Virus record (IMG/VR): IMGVR_UViG_2740892117_000010
Coordinates: 1 to 21,412 of that record
Strand: one strand, 5' to 3'
Origin: a virus
Taxonomy: Duplodnaviria > Heunggongvirae > Uroviricota > Caudoviricetes
Length of the DNA: 21,412 nt
Shown here: positions 1-21,412 of the stretch, in pieces
Layout of the letters: every line of letters starts with the position of its first letter
How positions within the stretch are numbered: the first letter of the stretch is position 1
The notes under the pieces: generated by a model
Seen by the model: the letters and a program-made list of their open reading frames with translations, nothing else
Database searches by the model: none
Told to the model about the DNA's origin: nothing
Translations under genes and position numbers: made by a program

Positions 1-372
1 TTCACCTGCGATCCGCGACAGCACGAAAGTACAGAATGCGGTTTCCACCACTTCAGCGGAGTCTCTGGCATTCTTCAGTTCCTGTGCGTCGGCCTGCGCA
101 CGCGTAAGTCGATGGCGTTCGTACTCAATAGTCCCTGGCTGGAGATCTGCCTCGCTGGCCTGCCGCAGTTCTTCAACCTCCCGGCGCAGCTTTTCGTTCT
201 CAATTTCAGCATCCCTTTTGGCATACCATTTTATGACGGCGGCAGAGTCATAAAGCACCTCATTACCCTTGCCACCGCCTCGCAGAACGGGCATTCCCTG
301 TTCCTGCCAGTTCTGAATGGTACGGATACTCGCACCGAAAATGTCAGCCAGCTGCTTTTTGTTGACTTCCAT
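1..372 (-). CDS. nu1: Terminase small subunit Nu1, N-terminal ~124 codons (gene runs off the window start)
   Basis: Minus-strand ATG at 372; translation MEVNKKQLADIFGASIRTIQNWQEQGMPVLRGGGKGNEVLYDSAAVIKWYA... matches lambda Nu1 from memory almost residue for residue. Absent from the ORF track because it has no in-window stop. Confidence 0.92.
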   Translation of the reverse strand, partial: MEVNKKQLADIFGASIRTIQNWQEQGMPVLRGGGKGNEVLYDSAAVIKWYAKRDAEIENEKLRREVEELRQASEADLQPGTIEYERHRLTRAQADAQELKNARDSAEVVETAFCTFVLSRIAGE

Positions 373-600
373 TGTTCATTCCACGGACAAAAACAGAGAA
401 AGGAAACGACAGAGGCCCAAAAGCTCGCTTTCAGCACCTGTCGTTTCCTTTCTTTTCAGGGGGTATTTTAAATAAAAACATTAAGTTACGACGAAGAAGA
501 ACGGAAACACCTTAAACCGGAAAATTTTCATAAATAGCGAAAACCCGCGAGGTCGCCGCCCCGTAACCTGTCGGATCGCCGGAAAGGACCCGCAAAATGA
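373..600 (-). other. Lambda-type cos site: cosB between Nu1 and cosN, cosN cohesive-end sequence at 550-561, cosQ side 562-600
   Basis: Reverse complement of 550-561 is GGGCGGCGACCT, the lambda 12-nt cohesive end; flanking sequence matches remembered lambda left and right ends; spacing to the Nu1 ATG (~178 bp) is as in lambda. Confidence 0.88.
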
Positions 601-771
601 TAATGATTGTCAAATACGTTTATCACACTGATATTCAGAATCACTACTGAAAGACTCCCTTTGTGGTGCGCGAGGGATGCGCATAAAAAAACCACCAGCA
701 AATGCCAGTGGCTAGAGATATTCATTGCGAATAACCATCACAAAACAACTTAACTCGTGAGGGTAGAAATT

Positions 772-1176
772 TTACTCGAGGCCAAGTTTCTTCTTTAAAT
801 AGGCCTTCGTTAACTCCAGCCCAACATCTTTGATTGTACTCAAAGGGGCATCGCTCATTGACTTTAATTTCTCAAAAACCGTAGGTTCATTTAATGCCTG
901 GGCGAATTCTTGTCCCTGCGCAGATAGTCGCACGTCGGTACCCATATCTAGCATATGGCCACAATGGCGCATGTAGCCCAGTTTAGTTATGTCATCCGTT
1001 ATTAGATCTTTATTACTGATATAACCTTGCTCAATAAGAAGTAGATAATGAAACATCCCTTCATTCGAGCAGATATCGTACCCCGCATTAGCTAAGTCTT
1101 TTGTAGATATAAAGGGAGTTTTCGCTTTCAAAAATACCTCAAGCATCCCCTTCATGTATTCTAAATTTTTAACCAC
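772..1176 (-). CDS. Hypothetical moron protein (134 aa), no family recognised
   Basis: ORF with GTG start at 1176 preceded by AAGGAGG 5 nt upstream; AT-rich relative to neighbours; lies between lysis cassette and cos. Confidence 0.6.
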   Translation of the reverse strand: MVKNLEYMKGMLEVFLKAKTPFISTKDLANAGYDICSNEGMFHYLLLIEQGYISNKDLITDDITKLGYMRHCGHMLDMGTDVRLSAQGQEFAQALNEPTVFEKLKSMSDAPLSTIKDVGLELTKAYLKKKLGLE

Positions 1177-1311
1177 AAAAACCTCCTTAGGATAATTGGA
1201 GGTCTAGAATACCGTTTGCAAGCACGTTGATAAATCATTATCACAGGCACTCAATGAATGCCTGCTGTAATTGCGTACGGTAATGAACGTAAAAAACCGC
1301 CCGAGGTATAT

Positions 1312-1671
1312 TTAGACATTAGATGGCGCTTTGTCAGTATAGACCCGGTACGCCCTGACAAACATCCCGTTACATTCAGAGTCCGCCTTGATATACGCCA
1401 ATTCGTAACCCCGATGCTTTAGCTCTTCACGAGCTCTTTTCTCTTCCTTAGCCATGAAGTTAAGATCTTTAATTTCTGAGTAGGTATATGTTCCCACTAT
1501 AAAATCTCTGCCTGGCCGTCCATTTATCAGTTCCATGTGTCCTCCCAAAAAGTTGGTAGTCAGAACATACCATGCTAAGCGAGGTGAAAGCACCTTTATC
1601 AAGCCCCCCGCAGATAGACTTTGTAATGGAGAGTCATTGAGTAGTTCTCGTAATTCTTTGATTTTCCGCAC
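1312..1671 (-). CDS. Hypothetical moron protein (119 aa from GTG at 1671; alternative 74-aa product from ATG at 1536)
   Basis: ORF downstream of the lysis-operon terminators; internal ATG at 1536 has a strong GGGAGGA Shine-Dalgarno, the GTG at 1671 has none, so the start is uncertain. Confidence 0.5.
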   Translation of the reverse strand: MRKIKELRELLNDSPLQSLSAGGLIKVLSPRLAWYVLTTNFLGGHMELINGRPGRDFIVGTYTYSEIKDLNFMAKEEKRAREELKHRGYELAYIKADSECNGMFVRAYRVYTDKAPSNV

Positions 1672-1824
1672 ACTCGTGCAGAAGGTGTTCCCCGTCGGGC
1701 TACGGTCATGGTTAATGCGGGAATACAGCGACGATACAGCGCATGATGTGTCAGGCTTGAATACCTTTATCCGTTAAAAGGGATATCAGTTAAGTTATCC
1801 CGTGTAGGGTATAAGCCATTATCA

Positions 1825-1887
1825 AAGCCACTCTGTAGGGAGTGGCTTTTGTAATGGCAATAAAAAAGCCCCGCGAATGCGAGGCTA
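1825..1887 (-). terminator. Tandem intrinsic terminator hairpins ending the lysis operon
   Basis: Minus strand reads GCCTCGCATTCGCGGGGC then TTTTTTATT (1856-1887), and a second hairpin AAAGCCACTC...GAGTGGCTTT (1825-1850). Confidence 0.6.
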
Positions 1888-2059
1888 AATCCAGGTATTT
1901 TTAATGACTGGCTCTTATCTCAACGCAGCCCCTTACCGCGCGCCAGATGCTCAATATCAAGCATCAGCAATGAGATGTTTAACCATGATTCACTCCAGAA
2001 GTGAGCACCACCCTGTCTACAGAGCCAGATGTGAAGGATGATGAGTAAAATTATCGCTA

Positions 2060-2542
2060 TCATCGAAGGCATTGCGTCCTGATGTATTCCTGAAGCGTTC
2101 TCAGTGCTGTTTGGTCGCGGATAATTCCGTCCCGGATACCGAGAACGTTTCGTCCAGCAACTGGAGAGAGTTCGACGGTGGCATCATTGCCCATGCCGGA
2201 GGCGCTGGAGGTTTCGGCTGAGGATGGCACAGGGCATTTTCCTTTGACGAACACCCGACCACCATTATCAAGCTTGCGCCGAAGAGCATCATTTTTAGCT
2301 TTCGCATCAGCTAACTCCTTCGTGTATTTAGCATCGAGTGCATCAGCAGCACGCTGGCGCTGCTGCATGTCAGTAATGGTGGCGGTCGCCTGCTTCAGCT
2401 CACTGACTTTTTTATCACGCTGTTCTTTGTAGGCGATGGCGTTATCACGGTAATGATTGACCGCCCACGACAGGCAGACGATGATGCAGATAACCAGAGC
2501 ATAAATAATCGCGGCGACTCTGCTCACTGATCTATCCCCCAA
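2060..2542 (-). CDS. Rz: Rz i-spanin (inner-membrane spanin subunit)
   Basis: Translation [39 protein letters not shown]...[15 protein letters not shown] closely matches lambda Rz from memory; overlaps the endolysin 3' end as in lambda. Confidence 0.92.
2101..2307 (-). CDS. Rz1: Rz1 o-spanin lipoprotein, embedded in the +1 frame of Rz
   Basis: Translation [21 protein letters not shown]...PPAPPAW has a lipobox (VVGC) and proline-rich core like lambda Rz1; entirely inside Rz. Confidence 0.85.
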
Positions 2543-3057
2543 CAGGCTAATGCGCTTTCCTGGTCACGACGAATAACCTGTCCATAGCAGTTATTTGAAC
2601 GTATGCGGCAATCGCGCCCACCATCTTTTATCCACCAGCGAATCGCCTCGCATGCACCTTTACGATCACCAGCATTCAGCCGCTTATAAAACGTCGACGG
2701 AAAACACTTACCGGGGCCAATGTTATAGGGACAAAATGACGCGATACCCGCTTTTTGTGGCTCGGTCAGTGGTACTTTAATATTGCGCTCCACCCATGCC
2801 AGCGCCTTATCACGCTCAATGGCGTTGACCTGGTCGCATTTTTCCTTCGACAGTTTCATACCGGGAAAAACGGGTTTTCCATCCACCATCGTGGCACCCC
2901 GACAGATGGTCCAGATGCCGGAACCATCGCGGTATGCCGTTGTGTGGTTACCTTCTTTTTCATCCAGAAACTGGTCGAGAATATCAGGCGCGGGCGCACC
3001 GACGGCAATCAGTGCCAGAACGGCAGCCGACAGGCCGTATCTGATTTTTGCGTTCAT
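2524..3057 (-). CDS. R: SAR endolysin (phage-21 R / P1 Lyz type lysozyme with N-terminal signal-anchor-release domain)
   Basis: N-terminal weakly hydrophobic Gly/Ala-rich segment ([16 protein letters not shown]) followed by a T4-lysozyme-like catalytic region; positioned between holin and Rz. Confidence 0.88.
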
Positions 3058-3120
3058 GGATATTTATCAGGATTTATCGGTTTCTGCCCACGGACAGGTT
3101 TATCTGTTCCGGTCAGTGAC

Positions 3121-3471
3121 TTAAGGTTGTGATTCCGGAGGAGTCTTCAGAGAACCAGTAATTCTTCCTGGTAGCTTTCCTTTGTAGGTTATCCAAACAT
3201 TCTGCGCATCTAAAATTACGGAGCGCTTTTCCGGCGACTGCTCGTCCCCTTCACATAACCCGGCAGCAACATCTAGGAAGACCTGTCTGATGCTCATTCT
3301 GGCTGCTGCCTCATAAAACTCCAGCGCGGCACCTTCAACACGGTCCAGCGAGATGTCCAGGTCAAAAATTTCACCGTCAAAGCGTTTTTTGTCCCGTAAC
3401 GCTAAAGTTACCGTAACTTTATTCTCAAAATTGCGGATCCCTTTCACAATCAGTTCATAGTTTTGAGTCAT
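3121..3471 (-). CDS. Hypothetical protein (116 aa) inserted between pinholin and endolysin
   Basis: ATG at 3471 with GGGGAGAG Shine-Dalgarno, starting 4 nt after the holin stop; no recognisable family. Confidence 0.6.
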   Translation of the reverse strand: MTQNYELIVKGIRNFENKVTVTLALRDKKRFDGEIFDLDISLDRVEGAALEFYEAAARMSIRQVFLDVAAGLCEGDEQSPEKRSVILDAQNVWITYKGKLPGRITGSLKTPPESQP

Positions 3472-3475
3472 TGAA

Positions 3476-3691
3476 TTACTCTCCCCGTGCAGCCTTACGC
3501 TTGTCTTCTTTAATCTTGAAATAAAGGTTTGTCAGATACGTCAGCAAGCCAAATACCAGACTACCCAGCACACCTATTGCCGCCCACTGTGAGGGCGTGA
3601 CTTTATCGAGCAACTGTAAAAACCAGTACCCGGCACTACCTGCTGAGGTGCCATAGGCGACACCCGTTGTTAACTTATCCATGGATTTCAT
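3476..3691 (-). CDS. S: Pinholin, phage-21 S type (71-aa antiholin / 68-aa holin dual start)
   Basis: Translation [71 protein letters not shown] is near-identical to S21 as remembered, including the MKSM...MDK dual-start motif. The ORF-track start at 3778 is an upstream extension. Confidence 0.9.
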
Positions 3692-3758
3692 AACCCCACC
3701 TCGCAGATGCGGGTGCTGTGTAATGGAAATAAAAAGGCCACCTGACGTGGCCACCAGA

Positions 3759-4811
3759 TTATTTCCCCACCAGCTCATTTATCTCTTTCACTGTCTGATT
3801 AAACCGCTCTGACTCAAGCTCAACACCTAAGGCCCGACGCCCCAGCGCCATTGCTGCTTTTATTGTGGAACCGGATCCCATAAAAAAATCAGCAACCAGA
3901 TCACCTGGTCGACTACTGGCATTGATTATTTGCCTGAGCATATCCGCCGGTTTCTCACACGGATGTTTCCCCGGGTAGAACTGAACGGGTTTATGCATCC
4001 AGACATCGGTATAAGGCACGGAGACTGATACGGAGAAATAGCGCCGGAGAGATTTAAACTCATCCAGCAATTCAGAATATTTACGATTCAGTGAATCATA
4101 AGATGCCACCAGCTGGTGGTGTGGTTGTTCCAGTTGTTGTTCCTGAAACTTCTCTGCCGCTATACGGGAAAACAGTGCCTGTAACTTCCGATAGTCAGCC
4201 TCATTCGGCAACTGCCACTGACTGGCACCAAACCAGTGGGAAACCATATTTTTCTTACCTGTGGCTTCGGCAATTTGTTTTGCCGTTATACCCAGTTCGG
4301 CACGAGCATCCCTGAAATACGATATCAGCGGTGCCATTATGTGCTGTTTGAGTTCCCTTTCTTTTGCTGCATAGCCGTCACTTTTGCCGCGATATGGCCC
4401 CTGGTAATGTTCAGCAAACAGAACGCGCTCTGTGGCAGGAAAATATGCGCGCAGACTTTCTTTATTACACCCATTCCAACGTCCGGACGGCTTCGCCCAG
4501 ATGATATGGTTAAGCACGTTGAAACGTTCACGCATCATGATCTCAATATCAGATGCCAGGCGATGCCCACAGAACAGGTAAAGGCTTCCGGCAGGTTTTA
4601 ACACCCGCCAGAACTGGGCCAGACAGTGGTCCAGCCACTTAAGGTAATCTTCGTCCCCTTTCCACTGATTGTCCCAGCCGTTGGGTTTCACCTTGAAGTA
4701 CGGCGGATCGGTAACAATCAGGTCAATGGAATCATCAGGCAGGGACTGAATAAAATGCAGGCAATCAGCGTTGATTAAATCAACACTGTTTATTTTTACA
4801 GTATTTTTCAT
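3759..4811 (-). CDS. DNA methyltransferase (N6-adenine/N4-cytosine class, DPPY motif), orphan
   Basis: Contains IVTDPPYF (motif IV) and a C-terminal FxGSGST-like AdoMet motif; no adjacent restriction endonuclease. Confidence 0.85.
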
Positions 4812-16408: not shown

Positions 16409-16469
16409 TTATCAGGACTGAAATTTGATATTACTGCCCGTGTGCAGCGGGTTAAGTGGAGAAACAGCC

Positions 16470-16679
16470 ATGGCAAAACTAATGAAAGCGAGCCAATGGG
16501 GACGCCGTGAATTCTCTAATGGCTCAATTCCTGACAACCGAACGATAAAACGCTGGGTCGAGAACGGTCTGCTCATGGGGCGTATAGTGGACGGTTCTGT
16601 TTTTGTCTGCGAAACAGAAAAATGGGGAGTCGACTCAATGGTTAGTCAAGCTGTTCGCAAGTTAATAAATGAGGGATGA
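16470..16679 (+). CDS. xis: Excisionase (lambda Xis-like)
   Basis: About 69-aa basic protein with a TIKRWVENG...DGSVFVCE pattern like lambda Xis (RRWVRE...DGREYLF); stop overlaps the int start (ATGA). Confidence 0.7.
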   Translation: MAKLMKASQWGRREFSNGSIPDNRTIKRWVENGLLMGRIVDGSVFVCETEKWGVDSMVSQAVRKLINEG

Positions 16680-17860
16680 CCATGGCGGCAAGGCCACGTA
16701 AAAAAGAATACAGACATCTTCCTGATTATCTGGTTTTTGATAAAGATCGAGGTGTTTATAAATTCACACTTATTACCGGAAAAAAGAAAAATATAGGTAA
16801 GGATCGGGCAATAGCCGTTGCAATCGCCAGAGAGTACAACCTGAGGATGCGATCAGAATTATACCCATCAGTGGATAATCTTATTAGAGAATCTGGCGGG
16901 GTCACCGGAGAAGCAAAACCATTTGCTGAACATGTCGATCACATAATGGCCAGAATTATCGAAGACGAACGACCTTCCCAGAGTACCTTAGATGACTGGA
17001 AAAATGACGCTCTACGCGTAAAAGCATTTTTCGTAAATGTTCCGGCATGCGATATCGAACTTGAACACGTTAATGCCTACATCAACAAATATCATGCCAG
17101 CGCATCCGCAAATGTGCAGAACAGAAAGGTCAGCTTTCTTAAAAAGTTGTTCTCTTATGCGGTCGATGAATCACTAATGCAGGATAACCCGGCCATCAGA
17201 AAAAAAATGCGTAGGACTGATGAGAAGAAAAGACGGCGCCTGTCACTCGAGCATTTTATAGCTATCAGGCAGGCCGCTGCACCATGGTTAAGAACAGCAA
17301 TGGACCTAGCATTGCAGACTACACATGCACGACTCGAAGTATCGCGAATCCGTTACTCAATTCGCGAACCTAAAGACGGTTTATGTGGATGTGTTTGGTT
17401 CGAACAACCACAAAATGGCATATATGGTACACTATACATCCATAGGCAAAAAGTACAAAAAAAGGAGGCATCACATGTTGCAATACCAATTGGTGAAGAA
17501 TTGAAACGGATAATTGACAATAGCCGTGACAATGTGGCCAGTCCCTTTGTCGTTCATAGAATCCCAGAACGGCATGTTAAACGCAGTAAAGAGGTTTCGC
17601 ACCCAACTCAAGTTGCACCAGATTATTTGAGTCGGTCATTCTCTTCCGTGCGAGACAAACTCGGACTATGCAATCATCTAGCAATGGAACAAAGACCTAC
17701 ATTCCATGAAATAAGAGCTTTGGCAGCTCACCTATTTGATAAACAAGGGATTGATCCGCAGGGACGAATGGCACATAGCGATGCGAAATCTACTAAAATT
17801 TATACTAAAAATCATATAGATTGGATTGTTGTCCCTCATGGAGAAATTAAAACCGGTTAG
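16676..17860 (+). CDS. int: Tyrosine integrase, lambda Int family
   Basis: N-terminal arm-binding-like region; C-terminal catalytic region parallels lambda Int (PTFHEIRALAAHLF vs PTFHELRSLSARLY, then H...Y). Confidence 0.9.
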   Translation: MTMAARPRKKEYRHLPDYLVFDKDRGVYKFTLITGKKKNIGKDRAIAVAIAREYNLRMRSELYPSVDNLIRESGGVTGEAKPFAEHVDHIMARIIEDERPSQSTLDDWKNDALRVKAFFVNVPACDIELEHVNAYINKYHASASANVQNRKVSFLKKLFSYAVDESLMQDNPAIRKKMRRTDEKKRRRLSLEHFIAIRQAAAPWLRTAMDLALQTTHARLEVSRIRYSIREPKDGLCGCVWFEQPQNGIYGTLYIHRQKVQKKEASHVAIPIGEELKRIIDNSRDNVASPFVVHRIPERHVKRSKEVSHPTQVAPDYLSRSFSSVRDKLGLCNHLAMEQRPTFHEIRALAAHLFDKQGIDPQGRMAHSDAKSTKIYTKNHIDWIVVPHGEIKTG

Positions 17861-17997
17861 TTATTAAATTCTCCACTTTATTTTGACTGACAATAACGGT
17901 TGCTAAGGCATAGAGTAAAGCTTAATTTAAAAGGCAGTTCTATGCCCATTTACCATAACTCCTCCCTTGTCCAGAAAGCAATATTTATTAATAAAAT

Positions 17998-18954
17998 TTA
18001 TTTACCCTTATTATACTCTTCAGTAATCTTATTCATGGATGATATATATTTATCCAGCCCACCATAGTTGGCTATCATTCGAAATGAATTACGGTACTCT
18101 GCCATTTTCACATCATGATTAGTAATTCCACACCAGCCACAAACTTTATTTTCCATGTTTAAAGGCTCATAACATTTTTTACATTGCCTTGATGCAGGTA
18201 TTATATTGCCATTAATAAATTGGTGTGATTTGAGATTTTGAGATAAAAGAAATGGTGTAGTTGTTGTTTTTCCTATTACCATTTCGAAATATCTACATTT
18301 AGCCTTTTTAGCTAAAGATTGAATTTTCTGCTTTAATAAATCATTTGATTTGTGCCCAACTATAACTCCAGTTATACAATTAATCGGTACCGGAAGGAGC
18401 ATAAGATTGTCATTCAGTTTAGTAAGTGCTTTCTCATTAATTATTACGCGACGTTCCTGCTCATAACTCCAGCAAGTTTGTTTTGTCAAATATGCGGCTG
18501 TCATTATACAGGATTGTAGCCAGTAGATATAACGAGGTTTACAGATATGAAATGCTCTCGCCAGAATGTCTTCAATACCTGTATCTGGAGAATCTTTATA
18601 TTCAACATCTGCTATTGAACTATGATCCTGGAAGCCGATTTCATCCAAATACTTTTTAAACTTCTCCTCATTAATCTCTATTACAAAACCAGAAGAATTA
18701 CCTGCATAATGTGCCCACATAGGTGGTATCACAGGGCTTTTCGTAAAACAAGTTGCTGGTTGTTTTGTAACCATGCCAATCATTTCATTGTAAAATGCTA
18801 ACTCATCAGAACCGCGATTAAAATCAATAGTAAGGAAAAACTCATAGGGATCATTATATTCATGTAAATGAGAGAATTTTATTCCTATATGTGTTTCATC
18901 CATCATCAATTTATCAATTATATCCGCTCCCATAAACTTATACAAATTGGTCAT
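17998..18954 (-). CDS. DUF2971-like protein with C-terminal CxxC...CxxC zinc ribbon; AT-rich cargo gene
   Basis: ATG at 18954 with AAGGAG Shine-Dalgarno; N-terminal NLYKF...FSHLHEYNDPYEF resembles the DUF2971 signature as remembered; C-terminal CKKCYEPLNMENKVCGWCG; markedly AT-rich versus flanks. Confidence 0.6.
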   Translation of the reverse strand: MTNLYKFMGADIIDKLMMDETHIGIKFSHLHEYNDPYEFFLTIDFNRGSDELAFYNEMIGMVTKQPATCFTKSPVIPPMWAHYAGNSSGFVIEINEEKFKKYLDEIGFQDHSSIADVEYKDSPDTGIEDILARAFHICKPRYIYWLQSCIMTAAYLTKQTCWSYEQERRVIINEKALTKLNDNLMLLPVPINCITGVIVGHKSNDLLKQKIQSLAKKAKCRYFEMVIGKTTTTPFLLSQNLKSHQFINGNIIPASRQCKKCYEPLNMENKVCGWCGITNHDVKMAEYRNSFRMIANYGGLDKYISSMNKITEEYNKGK

Positions 18955-19050
18955 ATACAACTCCTTTTTTATAAAATAACATTTTAAATCATATGATTAT
19001 GGAGGCACAAAATCCAGTAATTAGTTTTCAAGCCGGTTGTGATGTAGTTC

Positions 19051-19403
19051 GAGGACAAACTGAAACGTATTATTGATAACAGTCGCGATAACGTTGCCTG
19101 CCCGTATATCGTTCACCGTATACCGAGCGTAATAACAAACGCAGTAAAGAGGTATCCGCACCTGCCTATCTTAGCCATACTTTTCATTGCCCCGTGATTC
19201 GTTAGGCTTGTGTAATAATTTGACGATGGAGCTGCGCCCCCACATTCCACAAAATACGCGCACTAGCTGCATTTTGTTTGATAAACAGGGAGTAGACCAC
19301 AAGGGCTCATAGCCCACAGCGACGCGAAATCAACGAAAATTTATACGCGGAACCATATGATTGGGTAATGCTTCCGCACGGTGAAATTAAATACAATGCA
19401 TAA
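19051..19403 (+). pseudogene. Decayed 3' remnant of a second lambda-family integrase
   Basis: Roughly 70 percent nucleotide similarity by eye to int 17497-17860 (KLKRIIDNSRDNVA..., ...PHGEIK), with frameshifts and premature stops. Confidence 0.75.
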
Positions 19404-19436
19404 TAAAATTGGCCTCAAATGAGGCCAATTTTGGGG
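19404..19436. terminator. Bidirectional intrinsic terminator (perfect 12-bp inverted repeat AAATTGGCCTCA / TGAGGCCAATTT)
   Basis: Hairpin flanked by T-runs on both strands, between the integrase remnant and the convergent two-gene operon. Confidence 0.75.
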
Positions 19437-19437
19437 A

Positions 19438-19821
19438 TTAGGACGCTTTAGACTTGGTCATATTAGCGCAACGCTGGATTAATTTCTCTGCAGTCTTAAT
19501 CGCGGTGCTTGATTGGGTTGGCGTAATAGTGTCGTTAAGTCTGTAATCACAAACTATTCTCTGATCCTTAAGCGATTGAAGAGCATACCCCAAACCAATT
19601 AAGTCTCTTTTTTCAAAAGGTTCGTTACCCTTCCAAGCATCGTTAACAAGATAGTCAATGAGGCCTTGGTGACTTTCTTTCGGCCCCATGGTCAAACACG
19701 GAAGTACGTGGTGATAAGCACCATAATACGCACGTGCGACAGCGTTTCTGTAACCAATTTCGTCGTTACGCTTTTCACAATCTTTTGCGAAAGCGATAAA
19801 ATCGGAACTATTAACTGGCAC
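19438..19821 (-). CDS. Hypothetical protein (127 aa from GTG 19821; 144 aa if TTG 19872), possible HEPN-like helical fold
   Basis: GTG at 19821 with GGAGGA 8 nt upstream, overlapping the upstream stop; RAYYGAYHH has R-x6-H spacing but family assignment is speculative. Confidence 0.55.
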   Translation of the reverse strand: MPVNSSDFIAFAKDCEKRNDEIGYRNAVARAYYGAYHHVLPCLTMGPKESHQGLIDYLVNDAWKGNEPFEKRDLIGLGYALQSLKDQRIVCDYRLNDTITPTQSSTAIKTAEKLIQRCANMTKSKAS

Positions 19822-20578
19822 GCGCAGGTTCCTCCAAACGCCCTTCAAACCATACGCTGAAGGGTTTTCCAATCAAACTTTCATTTTCTGCAAGAGAAAA
19901 TGCTATATCCAAGTTCATATCAGAGAGAACATCAGAATCTTCAGTATTAACTGCCATGACATATGATGACGTACGCTCTTCAGGGATAGAGCAGAAAGAC
20001 ATAGCAACAGGACTAACTTTATGGTCAGCCATGATATCCACTATGCGGTTTGCAATATCCTGTAGTTCTTCATCAGTAATTCCAGTTGCACTTTTGAAGG
20101 TCGTGGATTGGGCCAGTGCTGTGGCTGCGAGGTGCTTAACCAATTCAGCCTCCTTTTCATCTACCATACTTATCAATCTCTCAGCATAGTAGAGCGCTTT
20201 GTCAATACGCCCCAAGAACAAGTTAGCTTCCCATGCATGGGACAGCATCGTAGGGGAGTTATAACGTTCAACTAATCGATTTACCACTTGTTCAACTTCA
20301 CGGAAGCTGCCGTAATCGTTGAGATAAACTACATAATTTTGAGCAATGATCAGGTTGTTATGCTTCAATGCTTCTTCAAAGAATGCAACTGCAGTATCTT
20401 TACGCCCAAAAGCACCATTAGCCAACGCTTTGAGATAGTCCTCAGATGCGCTGTCGCGCAACTTTTCTATATCTCTGATATAACGAAAATATTGCATTTC
20501 GGATATCGTATTCCGAGCCGCAAGAATATCGATTAATTCACTGCTGATTTCGTTCGCTTTTAGCGCCGGCTGTGGCAT
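19811..20578 (-). CDS. Hypothetical alpha-helical protein (255 aa), first gene of a two-gene operon
   Basis: ATG at 20578 with AAAGGTGA Shine-Dalgarno; TPR-like helical composition by eye; no catalytic motif recognised. Confidence 0.6.
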   Translation of the reverse strand: MPQPALKANEISSELIDILAARNTISEMQYFRYIRDIEKLRDSASEDYLKALANGAFGRKDTAVAFFEEALKHNNLIIAQNYVVYLNDYGSFREVEQVVNRLVERYNSPTMLSHAWEANLFLGRIDKALYYAERLISMVDEKEAELVKHLAATALAQSTTFKSATGITDEELQDIANRIVDIMADHKVSPVAMSFCSIPEERTSSYVMAVNTEDSDVLSDMNLDIAFSLAENESLIGKPFSVWFEGRLEEPARAS

Positions 20579-20773
20579 TAAATCACCTTTAAGAAACTAC
20601 GAGCTATGTTGCTTTAACTTCTGCAATCTTAGTAAGTTTTAGAAGGTTACATGAAGATGATCGTAATTTCCAATGGGCTAAAATGGTCAAAAAGCGAAGT
20701 AATTGTTGACTTTACGCCAAACATAAAACAATCAACAAAAAACATGTAGCCGCTCGGAAACTTAGGAGATAAG

Positions 20774-20802
20774 TCTGTGGATAACTAAATCTTATCCACA
20801 GA
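20774..20802. promoter_or_regulatory. Head-to-head pair of consensus DnaA boxes (TTATCCACA) forming an 11-bp inverted repeat
   Basis: TCTGTGGATAA - 7 bp - TTATCCACAGA in the AT-rich upstream region of the 19438-20578 operon. Confidence 0.5.
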
Positions 20803-21012
20803 AAAGCATATTAGAAGCAAATCAAAAAGTGCTATAGACGGAACCTATTAATATAGTAATGCTCCAAAAACTGACCATTTAGGAGTGGGGAAAAATCTCT
20901 CTTAACTCATTGATGTATATAGCGTGAATTTTGCGAATTATGCACTGTTTGCGCACACAGTGAAACACCCTGCCAGCCCAGCAATGGCGCGGTCTCCAGC
21001 GTTTCAGGCGCG

Positions 21013-21062
21013 GTGACATGGGGTGTCGGGGGTCGGAGGTTCAAATCCTCTCGTGCCGACCA
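21013..21062 (+). other. att core: 3' fragment of tRNA-Pro (proL-like; anticodon arm to CCA), not a complete tRNA
   Basis: ...ATGGGGTGTCGGGGGTCGGAGGTTCAAATCCTCTCGTGCCGACCA matches the remembered proL 3' half (T-arm, acceptor 3' strand, CCA); no complementary 5' acceptor strand (CGGCACG) upstream. Confidence 0.75.
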
Positions 21063-21074
21063 AAAATCCCAAGA

Positions 21075-21102
21075 AAACCAACCTATTGCGGTTGGTTTTT
21101 TT
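21075..21102 (+). terminator. Intrinsic terminator (native host terminator following tRNA-Pro)
   Basis: AAAACCAACC - TATTGC - GGTTGGTTTT followed by a T-run. Confidence 0.8.
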
Positions 21103-21163
21103 ATATCTGCATTTAATTCGATAAACAGACCGCGACACATCACGGCCTGTTTATTTTCTGTTA

Positions 21164-21412
21164 TCAGAACGTCCAGACCACACCCGCCTGAGTTGTGCTG
21201 CTTTCTTCACGGGAGAAACGGCTGTCGATACCAAGCGTTAGCCCCGTCAATGTTTGCTCAAAGCCAGCGCCTGCATCAGTGGTCACGTTGTTGCGGCTGT
21301 TAATTGCCGAACTCCACATCGCCGTATCGTAATTAACGCCTTTTACGCTACCAAGACGCCCACGCACGGTGTCCAGTTCTGCATCAAATACCAGCGGTTG
21401 TGCTGCCGCCAT
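21164..21412 (-). CDS. Host outer-membrane/autotransporter-like protein, C-terminal fragment (yejO-like; continues beyond window end)
   Basis: Beta-strand-like alternating pattern ending in a terminal aromatic (...AGVVWTF); convergent with tRNA-Pro as yejO is beside proL in E. coli K-12 (from memory). Confidence 0.45.
   Translation of the reverse strand: MAAAQPLVFDAELDTVRGRLGSVKGVNYDTAMWSSAINSRNNVTTDAGAGFEQTLTGLTLGIDSRFSREESSTTQAGVVWTF

Follow-up and report, generated by a model that had tools for sequence, protein, structure and literature searches.

A diverged integrase remnant between two accessory modules of a proL lambdoid prophage is probably the scar of a single non-homologous join

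Displaced 3' fragments of genes are found at prophage ends, as with icd at e14 or phage 21 and with the 3' halves of tRNA genes at attR. In the icd/e14 type, what site-specific integration duplicates is the att core. Integrase pseudogenes also occur in cryptic prophages, for example intQ of Qin in E. coli K-12. In lambda, the surroundings of attP are non-essential and variable, with the b region lying across attP from int. Lambdoid phages further carry morons, accessory genes inserted between core genes, with their own promoter and terminator and a deviant GC content, and non-homologous joins of related genomes make novel junctions in them, as described by Hendrix, Juhala, Casjens and colleagues.

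The defence hotspots of phages P2 and P4 are fixed slots between conserved core genes or sites, in which small gene sets are swapped fast, exchange taking place via the conserved flanks (PMC9122126; PMC13586616). Pseudogenes of core genes found in these hotspots were interpreted as remnants of intense recombination (PMC13586616).

The locus described here forms the right end of a lambdoid prophage that is integrated in E. coli at the tRNA-Pro gene proL. The window is the whole stretch of DNA that was analysed, 21,412 nt long. Its relevant features are the following, where P1 type and P2 type designate two arrangements of int, cargo and attP defined further below.

16676-17860, plus strand: intact int, 394 aa, lambda Int family, with arm-binding, core-binding and catalytic domains (open reading frame).
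17861-17997, no strand: intergenic spacer where int and the DUF2971 gene converge, belonging to the P1-type block.
17998-18954, minus strand: DUF2971 / PDC-S31 gene, 318 aa, ATG at 18954, proximal cargo (PGAP CDS).
18955-19036, minus strand: 5' leader and probable promoter region of the DUF2971 gene, apparently kept from a P1-type parent, with the junction at its right end.
19037-19403, plus strand: int 3' pseudogene stub, codons ~268-394, with frameshifts, a 15-nt deletion and the original stop codon at its end.
19405-19432, no strand: perfect hairpin AAAATTGGCCTCA-AA-TGAGGCCAATTTT, with T/A runs on both sides, read from the sequence.
19438-19821, minus strand: distal cargo gene 1, 127 aa, phrog_5176 (E 3e-29; PGAP CDS).
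19811-20578, minus strand: distal cargo gene 2, 255 aa, TPR-like, phrog_17809 (E 4e-42; profile match).
20886-21016, plus strand: conserved phage attP arm (alignment A3), the rejoining point of every cargo variant in the family.
21017-21066, plus strand: att core, 3' part of tRNA-Pro(GGG) proL from the anticodon loop through CCA, prophage attR.

Like the hotspots of phages P2 and P4, this locus has a fixed slot with swapped gene sets, conserved flanks and a core-gene pseudogene as a recombination remnant. It differs from them in that the phage is lambdoid and its slot is bordered by the int stop codon and the attP arm, that the scar is a piece of int, that two cargoes are stacked rather than swapped, and that the defence role of the cargo is putative. 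With lambdoid mosaics and morons it would share a non-homologous join, and it shares accessory genes of deviant GC content and variable attP surroundings; unlike the lambda b region, the cargo is situated between int and attP. Because the junction lies inside a gene, and not at a gene boundary as in lambdoid mosaics, a recognisable pseudogene was left. As with icd and e14, an intact copy stands on one side and a diverged 3' fragment on the other, a pattern that proL itself shows at 21017-21066, whereas a core identity block is missing from the int stub and no recombinase gene lies between the copies. Like intQ of Qin, the stub is a truncated, frameshifted tyrosine recombinase gene in prophage DNA, annotated as a pseudogene by PGAP; unlike intQ, it has a complete int beside it and would be a scar of module assembly, not of element decay. 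The junction is thus real, yet of an ordinary kind for phage mosaics. It leaves general concepts unchanged, since mosaic junctions and core-gene remnants in phage hotspots were already known, and offers a case of a temperate phage adding a second accessory module rather than swapping the first.

The preliminary description of this DNA had noticed a diverged, frameshifted copy of the last ~350 nt of int. Its existence was confirmed by tblastn, blastn, MAFFT and PGAP, and its start was refined to ~19037. When the 394-aa Int was compared with the whole window by tblastn, the sole match besides int was at 19003-19391 (Int aa 257-392), split over three reading frames (E 3e-15 and 3e-9). Comparison of stub and int by blastn gave two HSPs of 73.5% identity (E 2e-14 and 9e-13). 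Pairwise alignment of the two segments with MAFFT revealed significant similarity from end to end, as far as the stop codon, with ~66-70% DNA identity throughout. The homology of the stub to the catalytic domain of tyrosine integrases is significant (E 3e-15), and the RefSeq/PGAP call for window 19054-19403 reads 'recombinase; frameshifted; incomplete; missing N-terminus'; in annotation, this second 'recombinase' should not count as a second mobile element. That the similarity to int is due to chance or low complexity has next to no probability, being refuted by the tblastn E value of 3e-15, the alignment up to the stop codon, the independent PGAP call and the presence of another copy of the stub in T309.Ta3. 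At the left edge, homology is robust from ~19037 (int codon 268); in 19003-19036 (from codon 257) the int-like similarity is weaker and ambiguous, and overlaps the retained DUF2971 5' leader.

The stub has accumulated at least five frame changes, besides stops, and a deletion has cost it 15 nt that are present in int and in the T309.Ta3 copy; with its start at ~codon 268, this makes it a pseudogene. As placed by alignment with lambda, it begins beyond the Arg-I region and the Lys hairpin, and is devoid of the arm- and core-binding domains, the first catalytic arginine and the catalytic lysine hairpin. Since the DNA-binding domains and two catalytic residues are missing, it is non-functional as an integrase. 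The T309.Ta3 stub is less damaged, with one frameshift, one stop and a 7-nt deletion, and its identity to Int (72.7-88.9% at the amino acid level) holds over long in-frame stretches. The two stubs are 84-89% identical, versus ~94-95% for the block around them, and their indels are different. The comparison indicates that the stub evolved neutrally, about twice as fast as its flanks; such fast change and the build-up of indels fit an absence of sequence constraint.

The att site was found once. The core is the invariant block of alignment A3, in which strain J2 is represented by its complete proL, and a search permitting up to 3 mismatches detected a single occurrence in the window, at 21029-21062; ARAGORN did not detect a complete tRNA at 21017-21066. 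No repeat of the 20886-21016 arm was found within 17861-19050. This bears out the earlier statement that no second tRNA-core copy lies between the int copies. The DUF2971-like island placed between them was also verified (PF11185, E 1.8e-9; PADLOC PDC-S31, E 4e-22; phrog_1762): the DUF2971 gene (957 nt, minus strand) and its leader are all that separates int from the stub.

A survey of the slot that follows the int stop codon and precedes the attP arm drew on the 80 best IMG/VR relatives plus 12 genomes of other species. In these relatives the slot ranges from empty (16-22 nt, the attP arm directly following int) to ~1750 nt. At least four different cargoes occupy one position in E. coli proL prophages, with common boundaries at 17847-17859 and 20886: homology to other E. 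coli proL prophages ends at 17847-17859, and 20886 is exactly where homology to the APEC O78, MLI107 and MJ-T prophages restarts. Unrelated gene sets, the empty state included, are thus found between conserved flanks, as defines a hotspot, and the alignments indicate that the int-attP gap is a hypervariable cargo slot of proL lambdoid phages, its variability being directly visible. The gene sets that it hosts are likely superinfection-exclusion or defence genes, and SLATT and SMODS sister modules are found elsewhere. With its exact boundaries (window 17848-17860 and 20886), this cargo hotspot helps the mining of candidate defence genes such as DUF2971/PDC-S31 and the phrog_5176 and TPR pair.

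The resident Int matches the Pfam profiles Arm-DNA-bind_1 and Phage_integrase, phrog_1, and the lambda Int structures 1z1g/5j0n (E 1.7e-12). Sliding comparison with its relatives revealed 98-100% identity, dropping to 63-80% past ~aa 305-319. In strain VE-V11-M, int has the APEC O78 pattern to ~aa 304, is 93-100% window-like from aa 319, and is accompanied by the window-type cargo; the L004 int is a hybrid. The resident int therefore appears internally mosaic, its 3' third co-varying with the downstream cargo, and such patterns suggest that homologous crossovers inside int do move cargo between phages.

A comparison with related prophages for the parental configurations revealed both of them. 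The P1 type consists of int, DUF2971 gene and attP; in L028/L060, int and the DUF2971 gene are followed by an 87-nt leader abutting the att arm. Window 16436-18969 is collinear with L028 (78% nt identity), and the leader of the window aligns to the upstream regions of L028 and L030, with the common motifs AAATC(C)TAT and AAAATC(C/T)AGTA. The P2 type, with a full-length int, the phrog_5176 gene, the TPR-like gene and attP, is found in IMG/VR loci L016-L019, L021 and L022 and in Pseudocitrobacter faecalis (L033); these loci have neither DUF2971 gene nor stub. Window 19058-21104 aligns to L017/L018 in a single continuous blastn HSP (82-83%), which runs through their intact int 3' end. As exemplars that are 78-87% DNA-identical to the window, these loci show the arrangements and not the actual parents. 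The cargo of the window, 3029 nt, is roughly the sum of a P1 cargo (~1157 nt), the stub (~370 nt) and a P2 cargo (~1490 nt). The survey of the 80 best IMG/VR relatives detected a second int fragment in the window type alone.

The stub is most similar to the int 3' ends of the P2 type, at 71-76% (74.6% for the T309 copy, 76.3% for a reconstructed ancestor), and the resident int 3' end ranks near the bottom in similarity (~66-69%). Stub copies aside, blastn against complete E. coli genomes detected no full-length int near-identical to the stub, that is, above 76%, and against GenBank phages it gave one 80-nt match, so the exact parent was not found. Neither an unstacked P1 nor an unstacked P2 parent was detected in 5426 complete E. 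coli genomes; the stacking event may have taken place in another host. The distal cargo had been proposed to derive from the older of two elements. It does go with the stub and the other element, as the HSP with L017/L018 indicates; what the data show, however, is neutral evolution of the stub, and not the age of that element.

The breakpoint on the P1 side falls at the edge of the P1-type cargo, ~76 nt upstream of the ATG of the DUF2971 gene. The junction is bounded to about 19025-19037, i.e. within ~10-35 nt; it can only be bounded, with any microhomology unreadable, because the parental exemplars are too diverged. Since the P1-side breakpoint is at the cargo edge and not in int, the join would be non-homologous. 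Thus, of the recombination between two related elements within int that had been proposed, the two elements and one breakpoint in int are retained, but a crossover within the int of both partners is not. Nor was an integrase module replaced, as had been suggested: both ints are members of one proL-specific family, the distal block supplies the functional attP, and the outcome is a stack of two cargoes.

Very probably, then, the stub is a non-functional scar, left when two accessory modules were stacked in one slot by a single non-homologous join. Usual cargo exchange would be homologous, with one crossover in the int 3' part and the other in or beyond the attP arm, so that the int 3' end travels with the cargo. 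Here, a P1-type genome would have been joined, at its outer cargo edge, to a P2-type genome at ~int codon 268. The product would have the complete int and DUF2971 gene of P1, followed by the two genes and attP arm of P2, with P2 int codons 268-394 left as junk between both cargoes and gathering frameshifts afterwards. We infer that the join occurred by illegitimate recombination, either between free or replicating phage genomes or by deletion in a tandem double lysogen.

The latter route is possible, with a clearly smaller share of the probability. A P1-type prophage would have sat beside a P2-type one at proL, and one large deletion would have begun at the DUF2971 cargo edge, taken away the middle att and nearly the entire second phage, and ended within the int of the latter. 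This route and a single join between phage genomes lead to one and the same end product via different intermediates, and the data fit both. Tandem lysogens are plausible since both phage types share the att core and arm, the P1-side breakpoint is within ~10 nt of the expected start of the att arm, as for a deletion starting near the middle att, and IS-mediated deletion is known at the locus (strain J2, IS1). Nevertheless, none of the loci examined showed a tandem arrangement, int and stub have no remnant of an att core or arm between them, and a ~40 kb deletion with both ends in harmless places is required, whereas recombination of phage genomes requires just one illegitimate and one homologous exchange. 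The preliminary description had argued against tandem integration, and the lack of a middle att core and of second-element genes between the copies agrees with this; the missing core is, however, also compatible with a tandem lysogen from which the middle att and the second phage were deleted afterwards.

A local duplication of the resident int 3' end, for instance upon DUF2971 insertion, followed by decay, would resemble icd with e14 or phage 21. The layout of a complete gene, an insert and a displaced 3' fragment fits, and the DUF2971 island is compositionally foreign, with 31-33% GC versus 42-46% on either side. Yet the stub is closer to P2-type int 3' ends than to the resident one, and a single alignment shows its collinearity with int, cargo and attP of the P2 type. 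An identity block (core) is absent from the left ends of the int 3' end and the stub, the 1.56-kb 'insert' between them encodes no recombinase, and relatives share no mosaic break at resident int codon ~267. We consider this origin very improbable. A replacement 3' end of the icd/e14 type, or an attP within int of the SSV type, was also considered and rejected, there being no core block and only the DUF2971 gene between the copies.

A second, independent proL-type int stub is present in E. coli prophages L006-L008, where it begins at ~codon 267. The two stubs are 67-70% identical to each other, with nearly the same start codon, and this common start would be unexpected under a purely random breakpoint. 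A different int stub with SLATT/SMODS cargo and a relic proL attP forms a 3-kb block in three prophage contexts. The int 3' end, cargo and attP might therefore constitute a portable unit, the int piece serving as homology arm for defence genes, maybe with a preferred breakpoint at ~codon 267, after the catalytic lysine hairpin and beside the A-rich AAAAAGTACAAAAAAAGGAGG. This would explain both the matching stub starts and the relic-attP unit in unrelated prophages; we hold it to be unlikely. Two further candidates were discarded: L020, first taken for a third stub from aa 267, is a decayed int running on toward the end of its viral contig, and H160/L124 is the L007 stub type interrupted by IS3.

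The window stub itself could have been kept for a function, as promoter or operator of the DUF2971 gene, as insulator of the cargo operons or as portable homology arm. By the hairpin at 19405-19432 the DUF2971 gene would be cut off from the upstream minus-strand operon, so it must then have its own promoter somewhere in 18955-19403. Furthermore, the stub outlasted at least 5% divergence of the surrounding genes (T309.Ta3 versus window), the int stub with SLATT/SMODS does move among prophages, and crossovers inside int do shift cargo. Against such a role, which is rather improbable, stand the doubled rate of change and the indels, and the ~76-nt P1-derived leader is long enough to hold a promoter. 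A promoter scan, uninformative because its site count equalled that expected for shuffled sequence, placed no minus-strand site in 18961-19400. Finally, at 66-70% identity the stub and the resident int would recombine poorly by RecA- or Red-type pathways.

As for the cargo of the window, the DUF2971 gene is, from its profile matches, a candidate anti-phage gene; in cultured phages, its sole tblastn match was in a Klebsiella phage (25% identity). The hairpin that follows the stub is shared with P2-type locus L021 (92.6% over 19405-31). A simple terminator scan did not call it; from its structure, it probably serves as a terminator in both directions, for the former int and for the phrog_5176 gene. 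The product of the latter is 94-95% identical (aa) in P2-type loci L016-L018 and L021, and that of the TPR-like gene 93-94% in P2-type loci. The two genes overlap by 11 nt and therefore probably form one operon. Matches of the TPR-like protein to TPR_15, TPR_14 and TPR-S are weak, all under the Pfam cut-offs; PADLOC gave no match for either gene, and tblastn none for the TPR-like gene in cultured phages. The flank of P2-type locus L018 consists of phage tail genes, which corresponds to an attP form or an adjacent phage.

Of 5426 complete E. coli genomes, 52, of varied origin, have an identical 3.15-kb block with intact int. Given this near-identity in 52 genomes, a phage with the window-type block appears to be active or mobile. 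In strain J2, only window 19109-21012 is retained, adjoining IS1; with this strain as a case, IS-mediated deletions do occur at the proL locus.

The window is 100% identical to the E. coli CCUG 73778 chromosome and carries lysis, regulatory and early genes, followed by the right end of a lambdoid prophage with an early region of the yfdP/Q/R type. Chromosomal sequence takes up the last 350 nt and contains the yejO autotransporter pseudogene (21164–21412, minus strand), the chromosomal neighbour of attR, which RefSeq annotates as frameshifted with an internal stop in CCUG 73778. The prophage ends at 21017–21066, in the 3' part of the tRNA-Pro(GGG) gene proL, followed by the proL terminator. ARAGORN found no complete tRNA in the window, which identifies this segment as attR; strain J2 has the complete proL at the opposite end of the element. 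The order of the right end is as follows.

Features of the prophage right end
16676–17860, plus strand, int
17998–18954, minus strand, DUF2971 gene
~19037–19403, plus strand, int-like stub
19405–19432, perfect hairpin
19438–19821, minus strand, phrog_5176 gene
19811–20578, minus strand, TPR-like phrog_17809 gene
20886–21016, attP arm
21017–21066, att core, after the attP arm

The preliminary description reported a diverged, frameshifted copy of the int 3' end at about 19051–19403, and tblastn, a MAFFT alignment and the PGAP call agree with it. A tblastn comparison of Int with the whole window returned int itself and 19003–19391 only, the second match being spread over three frames (E 3e-15 and 3e-9). 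Blastn matched the int and stub segments in two HSPs, each 73.5% identical (E 2e-14 and 9e-13), and MAFFT aligned these segments up to a common stop-codon position. PGAP labels 19054–19403 "recombinase; frameshifted; incomplete; missing N-terminus". Along the stub the reading frame must change five times or more, and 15 nt are absent that int and the copy in strain T309.Ta3 both have. The left edge could be refined to ~19037 (codon 268), where robust homology begins; weaker int similarity back to 19003 coincides with sequence also matching leaders found 5' of DUF2971 genes at other loci. Int belongs to the lambda-Int type of enzyme, and the stub lacks its arm-binding domain, its core-binding domain, its first catalytic arginine and its lysine hairpin, starting past all four. 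Judging from its sequence, the stub could therefore not encode an active recombinase, in frame or not.

A search of relatives for the parental configurations showed that both exist. The first, P1, is found in locus L028 (= L060 contig) and consists of int (89% aa identity), DUF2971 (82% aa), 87 nt and the att arm; window 16436–18969 is collinear with it at 78% identity. In the second, P2 (loci L016, L017, L018, L019, L021 and L022, and L033 from Pseudocitrobacter faecalis), a full-length int is directly followed by phrog_5176, the TPR-like gene and the att arm, and all these loci lack DUF2971 and the stub. P2-type ints share 77–90% aa identity with the window Int, and the cargo proteins in L016–L018 and L021 reach 93–95%. 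Window 19058–21104 gives a single blastn alignment to L017 and L018, at 82–83% identity, through the intact int 3' end, both cargo genes, arm, core and terminator-like tail, as expected if the distal cargo came from another element, as had been proposed. Beyond the attP arm, core and tail, L018 (positions 1–4477) continues into DinI-like and tail-fibre genes, not host genes. This contig is in the attP (phage) form or contains adjacent phage copies, confirming that a proL 3' half and a terminator-like tail are part of the phage attP itself.

Over codons 268–394, P2-type int 3' ends are the closest to the stub: the T309.Ta3 stub, the better preserved of the two copies, reaches 74.6% identity with them, and a parsimony reconstruction from both stubs 76.3%. 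The resident int is among the least similar (68–69%). The lengths of P1, stub and P2 also add up (~1157 + 370 + 1490, versus 3029 nt observed). This sum and the stub affinities argue against a local duplication of the resident int 3' end, which we regard as highly improbable. The window and T309.Ta3 stubs have different indels and share 84–89% identity, versus ~94–95% in the block that surrounds them, the pattern expected of a neutrally evolving pseudogene. This approximately two-fold rate excess accounts for the gap between the stub (only 70–76% identity with P2-type ints) and its neighbouring cargo (82–87%).

In the P1 type, a leader of 87 nt lies upstream of DUF2971; the window retains about 76 nt of it, and int codon ~268 adjoins them directly. 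On the P1 side the breakpoint is thus at the outer limit of the cargo, just short of where the att arm would start; on the P2 side it falls within int. With no homology between the two sides, the join is non-homologous. Recombination of two related elements within int, as initially proposed, therefore fits the P2 side and not the P1 side. Very probably, the stub is a non-functional remnant of a non-homologous join by which two cargo modules, from related proL phages, came to be stacked: P1 (int, DUF2971) would have been joined to P2 from int codon ~268, and the cargo of both kept. A search tolerating up to 3 mismatches found a single att core in the window, and no second core separates the int copies, as had been noted. 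Its absence supports the earlier preference for recombination over tandem integration insofar as it excludes an intact tandem, but a large deletion in a tandem P1–P2 double lysogen is equally compatible with it. We consider that route less probable than a join of two phage genomes in one cell.

The same junction is present in T309.Ta3, pointing to a single stacking event ancestral to both lineages. Int of this family was found in 109 of 5426 complete E. coli genomes, and no unstacked parent, P1 or P2, was found among the 5426. Stacking may thus have occurred in another host, and the E. coli phage backbone may have received the product in one piece. The only partial form among these genomes is in J2, where an IS1-associated deletion removed the prophage and left 19109–21012; there the distal cargo survived loss of the phage. 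The J2 remnant (L002:4390–8087) comprises proL, a DinI-like pseudogene, IS1, the last ~295 nt of the stub, intact phrog_5176 and TPR-like genes and attR. In 52 genomes, of human, dog, cattle, bird and environmental origin, the stacked form is 99.7–100% identical and int is intact, which suggests that the phage is active.

The gap between int and attP is a cargo slot. All examined E. coli proL prophages are collinear with the window to 17847–17859 (last few int codons) and rejoin it at exactly 20886, with unrelated genes in between: two hypothetical genes in APEC O78, one 870-nt gene in MLI107, and DUF4760, a transposase remnant, a hypothetical gene and an ATPase gene in MJ-T. The slot is empty, with the att arm 16–22 nt past the int stop, in Serratia, Enterobacter, Erwinia, Citrobacter murliniae and many IMG/VR proviruses. 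Among the best 80 IMG/VR relatives it measures 16 to ~1750 nt, the window type (3029 nt) being exceptional and alone in having a second int fragment. DUF2971 corresponds to PADLOC candidate PDC-S31 and is the sole cargo gene linked to defence. The distal genes (19811–20578 and 19438–19821, both minus strand) share an 11-nt overlap and probably form a two-gene operon. The first product (255 aa) weakly resembles TPR / TPR-S (sensor) proteins, and its partner has 127 aa. Neither has a PADLOC match, and both belong to PHROG families without assigned function; the operon is a candidate for a new phage-borne conflict system.

Homologous exchange also affects this region, and int is a mosaic. The window int is 98–100% identical to those of APEC O78 and MLI107 over codons ~100–225, and 63–80% past codon ~319. 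The VE-V11-M int (L004:2822–4000) follows the APEC O78 pattern to about codon 304, is 93–100% window-like from codon 319, and lies beside window-type cargo. Homologous crossovers inside int therefore carry the int 3' end and cargo together. In other strains, insertion sequences lie within the 3' part of the resident int, namely in T309.Ta3 (IS903B after codon ~381, L003:2944–3912) and C11 (IS3 after codon ~318, L009:6020–7182), and have probably immobilized these prophages.

A different proL-type int stub was found in ~46 other complete E. coli genomes. It has 85% aa identity to the window Int, in frame over codons ~271–392, and 67–70% nt identity to the window stub. Downstream are a convergent SLATT plus SMODS pair and a relic proL-type attP (73% identity to window 20886–21101, two core mismatches). 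The 3.0-kb block of small ORF, stub, SLATT plus SMODS and relic attP (L008:5435–8444, L006:5432–8444, L007:5429–8439; compared with window 17485–17860 and 20886–21101) is 99.4% identical in three different E. coli prophage contexts. In one it adjoins tail-fibre genes at the lambda attB region, the second is a Qin-like element, and in the third it lies alongside another island. Whole units of int 3' end, cargo and attP from proL phages are thus transplanted by recombination. The starts of the two independent stubs nearly coincide (window ~19037, L008 ~5990; int codon ~267–268), which could reflect a fragile or slippage-prone site or, with two cases, coincidence. That int 3' stubs are arms of portable units with a preferred breakpoint, a reading based on these starts, has a low probability. 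Both starts come right after the A-rich tract AAAAAGTACAAAAAAAGGAGG, which codes for the catalytic lysine hairpin (window int 17447–17467). The int frame also breaks there in IMG/VR locus L072 and Serratia locus L041 (tblastn split at aa 258–263).

Mosaic junctions, morons and a dispensable region beside attP are classical features of lambdoid phages. Pseudogenes of core genes in P2/P4 hotspots have been read as recombination remnants (PMC9122126; PMC13586616). The present locus, likewise a scar of recombination in a variable phage slot, is another example of these phenomena; particular to it are the slot position between int and attP, a scar made of an int piece, and two stacked modules.

The attP arm just 5' of the core (window 20986–21063; VE-V11-M, L004:7125–7202; APEC O78, L005:5083–5160) bears a weak likeness to the tRNA-Pro 5' half, and its GGCGCG, for example, could pair with the acceptor 3' strand. 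PGAP annotates a 78-nt "tRNA-Pro" at attR of VE-V11-M and APEC O78, where ARAGORN, as in the window, finds no tRNA; it is probably a pseudo-tRNA call.
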